The notes below the pieces were generated by a model. The model did no database searches and was not told the origin of the DNA. It saw nothing but the letters and a program-made list of their open reading frames with translations. Below, one piece after another: positions 52,114 through 56,580 of a stretch of 64,000 bases of DNA. The position numbers and the translations under genes are program-made. The stretch is from Nitrospinales bacterium. GTDB lineage: Bacteria > Nitrospinota > Nitrospinia > Nitrospinales > VA-1. Every line of letters starts with the position of its first letter. Position 1 is the first letter of the stretch. The DNA lies in NCBI GenBank assembly GCA_965262115.1, contig OZ253496.1:224001-288000 (forward strand). The letters run 5' to 3'.

Positions 52114-52358
52114 ATGGAACCCGATAACGAAACTCCCGAAACGGTCCAGGCCCGACTAGATGTTTTACGCAAAGGCATTGTCAGTGAAGAAAACTCCGTC
52201 AATTATTACCAGACCCTTATAGATAAAACCCCTGAAGATTCGGACGCTAATATTGGGATGCGGAGGATGTATCAGGCCTGATGCTGGAAGAAAAAAAGCA
52301 TGTGGAACGTTTCCGCGAGCTTATTCGGGAATGGGAGCAAAAACTTAAAGAGTTCTAG
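52114..52358 (+). pseudogene. Small ferritin/rubrerythrin-like half-domain protein (~81 aa), single-base frameshift
   Basis: GAGG RBS; MEP...LRKGIVSEENSVNYY...MRRMYQ / LMLEEKKHVERF; frameshift at about 52276; absent from the ORF track. Confidence 0.72.
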
Positions 52359-52503
52359 ATATCGCCTCATATTCTAGCTGGATTGGTAAACGCCCCCTCA
52401 AACCGCTTTCAGTTTACTCAATTCAGACCGTAATTGGTATCCTCGCCATTTTCAAGTCCAAATATCCAAACTGGTTTTGTGATTAAAAATCTCTTTCATA
52501 TCC

Positions 52504-52549
52504 TTGACAATATAAAGGGCTTATTTTATTATTGATAACAATTCTCATT
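52504..52549 (+). promoter_or_regulatory. Sigma70 promoter with adjacent Fur box
   Basis: TTGACA (52504), 17-bp spacer, TATTAT (52527); TGATAAC-A-ATTCTCA (52533-47) fits the 7-1-7 Fur consensus TGATAAT-N-ATTATCA. Confidence 0.8.
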
Positions 52550-52563
52550 ATTATTTTAGGGGA

Positions 52564-54774
52564 TTGAATACTCAGCAGCAACTCATAAATATCAACAATT
52601 TTAATGGTTTACCCATCATGCTATCCGCCAAAGTCGAAATGATGCAAAAATCTGACTTTTTTAAAATCATCCTGATATTTGTTTTGTTTTTAAGTCAGAG
52701 TATTTGGATTCCAACCAATGCCCAAGCAACCAATCAGGCGACGATAGATAGAACTAAAAAAATTGTCATGATGCTAAACATCGCTGCAAAGGAATTTGAG
52801 GAAGGTGTGGTGGATGGGAAAATTGTTGTTCCGCCGGAATATGAAGAAAGCCAGGTGTTTTTGCAACAGGCCATGGAACGTTTTGAAAGAATCTCTTCTG
52901 AAATCACAGATCCACAAAAAGCAGAGAACCTTAAAAAACGGCTCATCAACATGATGGCTATGGTCAAGGATAAAGTGGATTCACAAATAATGTGGAAGGA
53001 AGTCAATAGTATAAATTCAGAGTTACTGGCAACTTTCAATATCGAAATCAAAAAAACACCGATCACCCCCGTATCTCTGGGGAACGGTAAAAAAATATTT
53101 GAAAATAACTGCTCGGTTTGTCATGGCCTCAAGGGTCATGGGGATGGCCCGATGGCTAGCCAGTTTGATCCCTCCCCTGCCGTTTTATCCAACCCAAAAC
53201 TGACAGGAGACGAAAACACCACCGCTTACGACAATTTCGAGGTGATTAATGTCGGAATTGCTAACACTGGGATGATGGCTTGGGCTGGAGTGCTTTCGGA
53301 AACCGAAATTTGGAATGTCACTTATTACCTCAGGACTTTTTCCAACAACAATGTGCAACTGCCACCGGTAAATTTGCAAGTGGCTGCAATGGAGTCATCT
53401 GGAGATTCCACAAGTAGCATGGCCGAACAGGTTGTTAACGAGGTTCGTGAGCTTCTCGAAAAGAGTTTAGCAATTTATGGGTCCGGTCAGGTGGACAATG
53501 CGGCAGAAATGGCTTTTGACGCGTATCTTGCGTATGAAAAAATTGAGTCCAACCTTATTACCAAGGACAGGAGTTTGGGTGTGAGACTGGAGTCGGCCTT
53601 CAGTCGCTACCGTGGTGAGATTAAGCGTAGTGCGCCATTTGGGCATGTAGAGTCCCTTAACAAGGAAATCAATCTGGACCTGGCAAAAGGTCTGGAACTG
53701 CTCAAAAGTGAGGTCGGTTTTACGGGAATGTTCTTTCAGTCATTCTCCATCATCGTTCGGGAAGGATTTGAGGCCATTCTCATCATCGCCGCGCTGATCG
53801 CGTTTTTAACGAAATCCCGCAATCAGGGGCGGATAAAAACCATCCATATTGGCGTTGTGATCGGTATTCTTGCCAGTTTTGCAACAGCCTATGTCATCCA
53901 TGAAATCCTTCACCTGAACATGGCCAACCAGGAACTTCTCGAAGGCTGGATCATGTTAGTTGCCGTTGCGGTCTTGTTCTGGGTCAGCTATTGGTTGGTT
54001 TCAAAAATTGAAACCAGGAAGTGGCAGGAATACATCAACAAAAAAATGCGTGGCGCCCTTTCAAAGGGAAACACTTTTACCCTGGGTGCGGTGGCTTTTA
54101 TATCTGTTTACCGGGAAGGATTCGAAACCGTTCTTTTTTACAAGGCGCTTTATTTGTATGCTGAAGGTGCGACCGCAGGAATCATTCCCGGGTTTCTCGC
54201 TGGTTGTGTAGTTTTAGCAGGAGTCTTCTATTTGATCAATACTTTGGGTATGAGAATTCCCATTAAATGGTTTTTTGGTTTTACCAGTGTTCTTTTGTAT
54301 TACATGGCATTCACCTTCATGGGAAAAGGACTTCACGAGTTGCAAATGGGCGAACAGGTTCCCATGACTGCCGCAAATTTTCTGCCCAGCATTTCCTGGC
54401 TCGGCATGTATCCAACTTGGGAAACATTCATAGGGCAGGCAGCGTTATTGGGGGCTTTTGTCTTCGCGCTGATTTACACTTTTATTATTAAAGCTGAATT
54501 GGGTGCTACCCAATTAAAAGAAGAAACCTCTCAACTGCAAAATGACATCACCCAGGTACACGATCTGGTGGAACATATTTCTCATCATGCCAAGCGTTGT
54601 GAAGTATTCCTAAAGGACACTCCGGATCAGGATTTGCAGGAGCTCTCAGGCCATTTGAAGGAGATTGATATCAAAATCCACGAACTGTTCGGGCATGTGA
54701 AATATGTGGAGAACCAGCTTCAGGATGAATATGAGAAGCTGGCTAAGCAGGCCTTCCAATCCAAACAAAATTAG
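52564..54774 (+). CDS. Cytochrome c-FTR1 family iron permease with His-rich C-terminal domain
   Basis: CSVCH heme site; two REGFE motifs; TM helices; His-rich tail. True start may be 52618-52642. Confidence 0.9.
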
Positions 54775-54782
54775 GCGATCTC

Positions 54783-56075
54783 TTGAATATTAGTTTTTTT
54801 AAAAATACGCGCATCATCCACAAATGGGTCGGTCTCCTGATTGCAGTATTCATTCTTATTCTGTCTGTTTCGGGTTTTCTTTTAATGCACCCGGAGGAAT
54901 TTGGCATAGAACAAGCCCAGATCAGCGGCAAGTACCTACCGGAAAAGTATTTTCAGGTTTATAACACCCGGCGCCGTGTCCAGTCACTCGCCACAGTCTC
55001 CGACCAGATTCTATTCGCGGGAACAGACATTGGTGTTTACCGGTCCTTGGATGGAGGAAAAACCTGGCTTCAAATCAATCAGGGTTTGTTTGATCTAAAC
55101 ATCAATTCCTTGATGATTAATCCGGAAGAACCCAATACCGTTTATGCCGCAACCAAGCGTGGCGTCTTTAAGTCAGAGGATGCAGGGGACACTTGGAGTG
55201 ACTGGTTCGATGAGACAACGGGTTTGACCAATACAATAATTAATGATCTTGCCCTGCATCCTGATAACACGGATATTCTGTTTGCCGCAACCGATGGGGG
55301 CATTTTCCAATCTTTGGATGCTGGAGAGAGTTGGGTGCCGGTATACACCGATCAACCTGTCCAGATCATAAAATTTTCAGCATCGAATCTGAACACCCTG
55401 TATGCATCTGGTGAAGGCAGCACCCTTCGCAGCAAAAACAGCGGGCGTGATTGGAGTCTCGTTTGGGGAAATACCCTATCTATCGTGAGTGCGCTGATAT
55501 CCTTAGACACCGACCCAGAGTTTCTCTATTCAGGCTCCGATACCGGCCTGTACAAATCTTTCAATGGCGGCAGGAACTGGGTTGCCGATTCTGCCTTTAA
55601 GAAGGCACCCATAAACGCAATTTTTGTGAGCCCTTCCAACCTGTCACAAATATACGTAGGAAGTGGGGCGAGTTTTTACTCCAGTAAGGATGGTGGCGAC
55701 TCATGGAGGAACATTTTCTCCTTCACCCAAAAAATGAACGGGGATTCTGGAACATCGGTTGATATTACCATTAACGAAATCACCAGTCTGAATGAAAAAT
55801 CACTCTTTGCGGGCACCTCATCGGGACTTTATTTCTCTGAGGATGCCGGTGAAAACTGGGAAAATATAAATTTAAGTGGTGCGGTCAATCAACTGTCTCC
55901 CGATGAAATGAAAATGGATGTTGTGAAACTCGTGACCGAAATTCATACGGGTCGCTTTTTTGGTTCCTATTTTTATATGCTTGTGGATTTAGCGACTCTG
56001 GGAATCGTGTTTCTGACAATATCCGGCTTCCTGATTGCCTATTACCGGGCCAAGGTTAAGAACCGGAAAAAATAG
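54783..56075 (+). CDS. PepSY-TM-type membrane protein with a 7-Asp-box (BNR) beta-propeller
   Basis: HKWVGL TM1; seven SxDxGxxW-like boxes; EIHTGRFFG before the last TM. Confidence 0.82.
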   Translation: MNISFFKNTRIIHKWVGLLIAVFILILSVSGFLLMHPEEFGIEQAQISGKYLPEKYFQVYNTRRRVQSLATVSDQILFAGTDIGVYRSLDGGKTWLQINQGLFDLNINSLMINPEEPNTVYAATKRGVFKSEDAGDTWSDWFDETTGLTNTIINDLALHPDNTDILFAATDGGIFQSLDAGESWVPVYTDQPVQIIKFSASNLNTLYASGEGSTLRSKNSGRDWSLVWGNTLSIVSALISLDTDPEFLYSGSDTGLYKSFNGGRNWVADSAFKKAPINAIFVSPSNLSQIYVGSGASFYSSKDGGDSWRNIFSFTQKMNGDSGTSVDITINEITSLNEKSLFAGTSSGLYFSEDAGENWENINLSGAVNQLSPDEMKMDVVKLVTEIHTGRFFGSYFYMLVDLATLGIVFLTISGFLIAYYRAKVKNRKK

Positions 56076-56317
56076 TGGAAGATCTGACGACTGATCGTGT
56101 GATTGAACTCACAGAAACCACCGATGAGCTTTCAACCGAGAGTCAGGAAATCCATGACATGATAGAACACATCACCGAACACATTGAAAAATGTCGACTG
56201 GTTTATATGGATCAGGAGAAAAATGAAATCGAGGAAATTGGCCGGCACCTCAACACTCTGGACAAAAAAATGCACCGGCTGATGCAACACCTGGGGGAAT
56301 TGGAAAAGACCGATTAA
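56075..56317 (+). CDS. His-rich helical protein/domain homologous to the FTR1 tail (possibly the C-terminus of the preceding gene)
   Basis: Ungapped alignment to the FTR1 tail, 21/68 identities including 6 His and 1 Cys. Confidence 0.8.
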   Translation: MEDLTTDRVIELTETTDELSTESQEIHDMIEHITEHIEKCRLVYMDQEKNEIEEIGRHLNTLDKKMHRLMQHLGELEKTD

Positions 56318-56580
56318 TGAATATATCGCTTTTCCTTGCCTGAAGAGTGTGGAGCGAGGTTCTGATCACGGTTGATCATATTCATCTTTTTATATTCTTC
56401 CCAATTGTCTCGAAACAGGTTGAAACCAACATAATCCAGCGCTTGCATGATTTCGAGTTCAGAAACCTTGCCTTCGCCGCCATCCACTTCACGAATCACA
56501 TCTTCCAACTGTTCGCAAAGACCGGCAAACCGCTCTTCATCTTCAAACATCATAAAGTCTTTCATGAAATCAAAGGTCAT
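56314..56580 (-). CDS. Hypothetical acidic protein
   Basis: GGAG RBS, 88-aa ORF downstream of eda. Confidence 0.6.
   Translation of the reverse strand: MTFDFMKDFMMFEDEERFAGLCEQLEDVIREVDGGEGKVSELEIMQALDYVGFNLFRDNWEEYKKMNMINRDQNLAPHSSGKEKRYIH

Follow-up and report, generated by a model that had tools for sequence, protein, structure and literature searches.

A shared His/Cys helical hairpin at the C-termini of an FTR1 iron permease and its PepSY-TM neighbour in Nitrospinota

Why should two neighbouring membrane proteins of an iron-uptake locus end in the same segment rich in histidine and acidic residues? The question is raised by a 64,000-nucleotide stretch of a Nitrospinales genome (assembly GCA_965262115.1, contig OZ253496.1, positions 224,001 to 288,000; hereafter the window), in which a cytochrome c-FTR1 permease (52618-54774), a PepSY-TM/beta-propeller gene (54783-56075) and an open reading frame (ORF) of 80 amino acids (aa; 56075-56317) follow one another on the plus strand. 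Comparing the window with related loci, we found that the permease and, in relatives, the PepSY-TM protein carry homologous copies of a His/Cys helical hairpin after the last transmembrane segment (TM). Tentatively, and at a little below an even chance, we read this hairpin as a cytoplasmic metal-binding module that would self-pair into four helices, with optional cross-pairing, and make the importer's assembly or activity depend on Fe2+ inside the cell.

Two copies of one hairpin

The tail of the permease aligned without gaps to the 80-aa ORF, with 21 identities over 68 positions that included the Cys and all six His of the ORF. The alignment scored 134 against 47 for the best shuffle, none of 3000 shuffles reached that value, BLASTP returned an E value of 7e-14, and the family profiles matched each other at 97.5%, bearing out the shared segment reported in the initial annotation. 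The genome holds exactly two copies, and the tails of FTR1 and PepSY-TM proteins fell into separate clades (support 88 and 90 in the Shimodaira-Hasegawa-like approximate likelihood ratio test, SH-aLRT) in a quick tree of 71 columns that does not resolve the deep branches. The features concerned are the following.

52618-54774, plus strand: cytochrome c-FTR1 iron permease, 718 aa (the longest ORF runs from a TTG at 52564; a 718-aa protein is on record, P0036)
54508-54711, plus strand: His/Cys helical hairpin, copy 1, the C-terminal tail of FTR1, defined by alignment, conservation and predicted structure
54783-56075, plus strand: PepSY-TM protein made up of TM1, a periplasmic BNR/Vps10 beta-propeller and TM2, with an early end in the window
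56067-56075, plus strand: loss of a single base where an A6 run ends; the stop this creates shares bases with the GTG of the following frame and detaches the tail
56075-56317, plus strand: second copy of the His/Cys helical hairpin, aligned over 56102-56305; in relatives it forms the C-terminus of the PepSY-TM protein

Conservation was counted over the 108 copies that remained when 216 distinct near-full-length matches were made non-redundant at 90%. H27 and H49 were invariant (108/108), followed by H18 and H23 (102 each), D54 (100), H58 (99), E22 (97) and C31 (96), so that the expected conservation of the His and Cys positions in orthologues was observed. All six His are identical between the two window tails, as initially annotated, but the sixth, at domain position 63, is present in only 54 of the 108 hairpins and in 7 of 46 PepSY tails. 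Among 35 FTR1 orthologues, picked on their RExxE and CxxCH motifs, the tail was as conserved as the permease core (62-98% versus 65-98% identity) and much better conserved than the N-terminal helical domain (31-98%); the PepSY tail was better conserved than its own propeller in 21/21 partnered orthologues.

The permease runs from a signal/TM segment through a helical domain, a CxxCH motif (53110-53124) and a second helical domain into FTR1, whose two RExxE motifs, both reading REGFE, lie at 53758-53772 (residue 399) and 54112-54126 (residue 517). These motifs together with the family matches confirmed the cytochrome c/FTR1 fusion. A hydropathy scan placed five TMs over threshold after the signal segment, compared with seven in yeast Ftr1. 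The protein resembles known FTR1/EfeU permeases, including cytochrome c fusions, in its two RExxE motifs, its match to Pfam PF03239 (94.4 bits against a curated cut-off of 25.3), its periplasmic CxxCH domain and its Fur box (see below), whereas it differs from them in scoring below the EfeU equivalog NF041756 (108.3 against 255 bits), in having no EfeO/EfeB or Fet3 partner in the locus and in its 70-aa His/Cys hairpin, which lies outside every family model.

The neighbouring protein was likewise borne out by family matches as a PepSY-TM protein with a BNR propeller (PF03929, 37.5 bits against a cut-off of 28.8), and three of its His, H13, H36 and H388 (codons 54819, 54888 and 55944), were each invariant in 26/26 orthologues. 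With PepSY-TM ferric reductases (FoxB, HiuB, VciB; PF03929/PF16357) it shares a PepSY_TM match above cut-off, invariant His at the membrane boundary, an iron-regulated context and, in some relatives, FMN-binding neighbours (PMC8238504, PMC11334425 and PMC13001220). The latter two papers give FoxB two bis-His heme sites; by contrast, the present protein has two TMs placed around a propeller, a C-terminal hairpin and three conserved His per chain, one fewer than the four that two bis-His sites in one chain take. A homodimer would be the simplest way to complete such sites, and it would join two identical tails.

The small ORF does not represent a separate gene. It is the end of the PepSY-TM gene, split off by a frameshift: all 24 relatives that have this segment read it in frame with the protein's final TM (22 with open frames of 514-568 aa, one whose frame stops at a contig end and one with a 240-aa frame), which rules out an independent conserved gene. 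Relative to three close relatives, the deleted base lies at position 56072. The picture of one tail on each partner therefore holds for the family and fails in the window strain, where the PepSY tail has been split off. Contigs from three sequencing runs (depth 262, 16 and 15) matched the window without gaps and, although they may be the window's own source, lend no support to a consensus error; they argue that the strain really carries this break and a second one near 52276, described below. Some runs labelled sponge metagenome, with a low share, were excluded from any reading of habitat. The PepSY protein of this strain would then be made mostly without its tail, or the tail would be translated separately from the overlapping GTG. 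Further damaged PepSY tails were seen elsewhere: in one genus (L116-L119) the PepSY body is kept and the tail has decayed, with loss of the H18/H58 region, next to an intact FTR1 tail, and in G034, the genome matching P0187 of Nitrospina gracilis, the PepSY tail is frameshifted at an A-run within the hairpin (L057:8665-8882), either as an independent break or as an assembly error.

Range and genomic settings

The hairpin is an unnamed family, its name being absent from the libraries tested, while FTR1, cytochrome c fusions and PepSY-TM reductases are known. Neither tail matched Pfam or NCBIfam above cut-off; a scan with 27 family members found only generic coiled-coil families among the best 25 of 128 matches; the PDB gave only GCN4-type matches by sequence (best E 0.0012); and Foldseek returned nothing at E<=0.001 for the single-hairpin and tandem models. 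Across these four resources, the initial statement that the segment belongs to no characterised domain held. The ESM Atlas gave a best value of 0.81 for the single tail and no usable match for the tandem, a blank that shows neither novelty nor absence, and a search of a literature library with few subscription papers turned up no description of the hairpin.

The hairpin was present in 80 of 120 Nitrospinota genomes (43/57 good ones), and a search of 1.84 billion protein representatives gave 26 matches. Two wider protein searches covered the best ~8000 candidates each, and a metagenome scan comprised at least 593 stretches with 9 confirmed, so the range outside Nitrospinota is under-sampled; searches of plasmids and of viral contigs gave no hairpin match. 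Three candidate members were discarded, P0014 and P0027 as compositional noise and P0019 as a chimera-like fragment.

Several settings were distinguished. The domain of ~70 aa forms (a) the tails of Nitrospinota FTR1 proteins and (b) the tails of PepSY-propeller proteins. Setting (c) comprises FTR1 proteins further afield that end in the hairpin: P0030 also has a P19 domain, and another is encoded in a PepSY-free cluster of P19, FTR1 and Fur genes (L112). At 919 and 1246 aa, P0022 and P0030 are exceptionally long FTR1 proteins in which extracellular helical domains are repeated and the same hairpin stands at the end, P0030 carrying P19-like domains as well. In setting (d), a two-TM PepSY protein of 205-210 aa with a hairpin stands behind an FMN-binding gene in six genomes; the loci L106-L111 (e.g. 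L108:3566-6219) have an unassigned gene of ~440 aa (porin-like by eye), the FMN-binding protein and this small PepSY protein, whose hairpin lacks the Cys. PepSY-like proteins have been linked to iron reduction and to FMN-binding partners (PMC8238504), a link that fits settings (b) and (d). Setting (e) is a free hairpin protein of ~84 aa lying 330 base pairs (bp) behind dtxR-feoA-feoB (L075); here a DtxR-family regulator, feoA and feoB are followed by the free hairpin at the place of feoC and then by an ArsR regulator and an ArsP-type permease (L075:2811-6588). Finally, (f) two tandem hairpins form the N-terminus of transglutaminase-like proteins (PF01841; P0011, P0012, P0190, P0191 and P0192), which are possibly metal-regulated enzymes.

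Fold, ligands and pairing of the tails

AlphaFold predicted the single hairpin as two helices (H2-41 and H47-93; predicted local distance difference test, pLDDT, of 81), and the natural tandem as four long helices with a mean pLDDT of 57.5, in line with a predicted two-helix fold and a predicted tandem four-helix bundle. The tandem model superposed on Maquette-3 (Z 17.5, root-mean-square deviation (rmsd) 2.8, 164 residues), single-chain ROP (Z 14.1, rmsd 1.8, 120 residues) and YtfE (Z 13.3, rmsd 2.9, 143 residues), although many unrelated bundles have similar Z values; for these models, superposition on up-down four-helix bundles shows fold class, not kinship. A four-helix bundle, as first proposed for the two tails, is accordingly possible in principle and is how the natural tandem copies model, whereas its heterodimeric version received weak support only (see below).

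On a heptad map, hydrophobic residues and C31 occupy positions a and d, and the conserved polar positions are paired at i/i+4 spacing and at matching heights; in all five host classes these polar residues were better conserved than the hydrophobic core. By this map, the ligands would cluster on two opposite faces, with H23/H27/C31 joined by E45/H49 (c/g) on one and H18/E22 joined by D54/H58 (e/b) on the other, and outer members would have a third cluster of H9/D13 with E59/H63. If two hairpins formed a bundle, each would turn one face towards the other, making one set of sites bridging. The hairpin as modelled shares with hemerythrin-like (YtfE/ScdA) and CsoR/RcnR bundles up-down helices and candidate His/carboxylate or His-x3-Cys ligands, but differs in ligand spacing and shows no detectable homology: hhalign gave 0.28% for the single hairpin and 0.20% for the tandem against hemerythrin-like PF01814 (an 11-sequence alignment), and 0.81% against CsoR/RcnR (PF02583), where only His-x3-Cys aligned and two helices stand against the three-helix chain of CsoR. 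The column table of the hairpin held no conserved ferritin-like ExxH ferroxidase motif, its pairs being i/i+4 (E45/H49, D54/H58, E59/H63).

Both tails are likely cytoplasmic, because yeast Ftr1 has seven TMs with its C-terminus inside (PMC11817551) and because basic residues flank the membrane segments of the PepSY protein, before TM1 and after TM2, with six K/R in the 12 residues after TM2. Homology for FTR1 and charge for PepSY would place both tails on the same side of the membrane, and with the alignment, the orthologues and the predicted hairpin they uphold the initial view of a shared, unassigned His/Cys helical domain following the last TM of each protein.

Together, these data lead us to favour, at the tentative strength given above, a self-pairing metal module: H27 and H49 are invariant, the tails are conserved like the permease core, and each tail persists alone. 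Judged from its sequence patterns, the hairpin would bind a divalent metal, most plausibly Fe2+, and act in regulation; it recurs beside FTR1, PepSY-TM/FMN-binding and FeoAB systems. Its usual partner would be a hairpin of the same kind, the neighbour's tail being an optional one, and if the two-TM PepSY protein has to dimerise to complete bis-His heme sites, two identical tails would meet. In the periplasm, iron would be made ready for FTR1 by the PepSY-TM protein (electron supply), the propeller (chelate capture) and the cytochrome c domain, while pairing of the hairpins would let the iron level inside the cell set how the importer, itself likely Fur-controlled, is assembled or how active it is. 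Several observations weigh against this proposal. The family was gathered with His-rich queries, which inflates the His conservation, and C31 is missing from the small PepSY proteins, from G002 and G016 and from two of three stand-alone copies. PepSY tails are cut off in the window strain and decayed in one genus (30% identity), and two cytochrome c-FTR1 relatives of the same order (G029, G038) have FTR1 with no hairpin match, so that the tail is dispensable for some such permeases. Furthermore, the hairpin near feoB represents one locus, with a 330-bp gap and possibly its own promoter, and we know of no iron link for the transglutaminase-like fusions.

The initial annotation proposed a heterodimer of the two tails, and a distinctly unlikely extension of this idea is that they bind only each other through metal bridges, thereby assembling or gating a permease-reductase complex. 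Modeled with two Fe, the hetero-pair gave ipSAE interface scores of 0.36, 0.27 and 0.36 against 0.02 for the best control, with at least 21% of contacts in agreement and a partner pLDDT of at least 67, which was graded as weak support. In calibration, 116 of 157 solved pairs and 2 of 215 mismatched pairs attained the mark, yet scores of 0.60 or less contained only 18 solved pairs along with both passing mismatches; close cousins of true partners also pass, and the calibration is only rough here, where own alignments and metal were used. Obligate pairing would also fit the joining of two different hairpins in the tandem fusions and the separate FTR1 and PepSY clades, as for old specialised paralogues, and it has a parallel in yeast, where Fet3 and Ftr1, likewise a redox protein and a permease, require their cytoplasmic C-termini to interact (PMC11817551). 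The yeast segments, however, are brief trafficking motifs that do not resemble the hairpin in sequence, Fet3 is a multicopper oxidase, and the two share no homologous domain. Among 43 FTR1 loci the partner was adjacent in 33, cleanly lost in 7, a remnant in 1 and not within 1.7 kb in 1, and one locus ended too soon, a pattern that speaks against obligate pairing. Genome-wide searches found no partner in 5/5 genomes with a partnerless FTR1 (94-97% complete), where the FTR1 tail was intact and 71-91% identical to the window tail (two without Cys); conversely, no FTR1 was found in 5/5 incomplete genomes (78-89% complete) with the small PepSY-tail protein. The FTR1 tail stayed 67-68% identical where the PepSY tail had dropped to 30%, and median ratios of the nonsynonymous substitution rate (dN) between tail and TM were alike with (0.83, n=23) and without (0.94, n=8) the partner, giving no clear signal of relaxed selection after partner loss. 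As each protein survives without the other, obligatory pairing of the tails is unlikely, and a heterodimer would be optional at most.

Three further explanations were weighed. If the tail merely accepted Fe2+ leaving the permease, to hold it or hand it to cytoplasmic clients without any gating, then the up to three ligand clusters that each hairpin may have, the stand-alone soluble copy by feoAB and the half-ferritin gene found upstream in 24/43 loci would fall into place; we consider this unlikely, as it leaves the copies on PepSY-TM, which is not a transporter, and on transglutaminase-like proteins unexplained. A metal-independent coiled-coil oligomerisation domain, with its His serving structural hydrogen-bond networks or a pH switch, would account for the regular heptads and for the weak Pfam and PDB sequence matches, all generic coiled coils such as GCN4, but is improbable given that polar residues outdo the hydrophobic core in conservation in five host classes, that His and carboxylates form i/i+4 pairs and that the hairpin recurs beside iron systems. 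The least probable reading, and a very doubtful one, is that paired hairpins hold heme between their His in the manner of a maquette and form a cytoplasmic electron entry for the PepSY-TM reductase: an artificial maquette is indeed the top structural match for the tandem model, and some PepSY-like proteins have a cytosolic NAD-binding domain (PMC8238504), but the conserved His lie at flanking b/c/e/g heptad positions rather than in the core, the identity to the maquette is 6%, and such Z values are common among helical bundles. Taking the self-pairing metal module further, the hairpin might be a plug-in family of cytoplasmic iron sensors in which metal bridges switch between self-pairs and mixed pairs, so that the labile iron pool would act back on FTR1 and PepSY-TM directly and post-translationally, and which is reused free by FeoAB and pre-paired on transglutaminase-like enzymes; we regard this wider proposal as rather unlikely.

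Control of the locus and its meaning

Upstream of the permease lie three further features.

52504-52532, plus strand: putative sigma-70-like promoter read off the sequence, TTGACA and TATTAT separated by 17 nucleotides
52534-52552, plus strand: Fur-box-like site right after the -10 hexamer, from its consensus match and its conservation in orthologous upstream regions
52114-52358, plus strand: gene resembling half-ferritin/rubrerythrin, with a product of 81 aa in relatives; loss of one base near 52276 disrupts it in the window

The Fur-like box departs from the 19-bp consensus at 4 positions, and 2.68 Mb of sequence contain 20 sites of this quality, this one included. At up to 4 mismatches, a box was kept in 20 of 24 orthologous upstream regions (those of 37 loci in which the anchor motif was found and enough upstream sequence was available) versus 5 of 480 shuffles, which upholds the box first seen at this locus, and two Fur-family genes are present in the genome. 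The iron importer is likely Fur-controlled. A search for RNA data sets containing the locus listed none. The half-ferritin gene that was originally listed at this locus is present, but it is frameshifted, lies upstream of the promoter and Fur box of the iron operon and is not a constant part of the locus, a half-ferritin-like gene (pattern ExxxxxxY...EExxH) being detected in 24 of 43 loci; its intact orthologue matched Rubrerythrin weakly, below cut-off (E 0.00097).

Other genes of the window deserve mention. Convergent on the iron operon, a conserved acidic protein of 88 aa without a Pfam family is encoded at 56314-56580 on the minus strand, and this gene occurs at most Nitrospinales loci, with or without the PepSY gene. 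Farther away, at 61185-62807, HD-GYP-like and MgtE-like genes (families judged by eye) appear as short fragments, compared with 469 aa (L046) and 451 aa (L114) at corresponding positions in relatives, further signs of gene decay in the lineage of the window.

Bacterial FTR1-type importers are regarded as transcriptionally controlled, through Fur. If our favoured reading is true, a conserved cytoplasmic metal-binding module would add fast control of an FTR1 importer at the protein level. Nitrospinota, most of whose genomes contain the hairpin, rank among the chief nitrite oxidisers of the sea and need much iron. The domain is small and soluble, is found naturally in single, tandem and free forms, and has a cultured carrier in Nitrospina gracilis (P0187). 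This unnamed hairpin family now has a definition.

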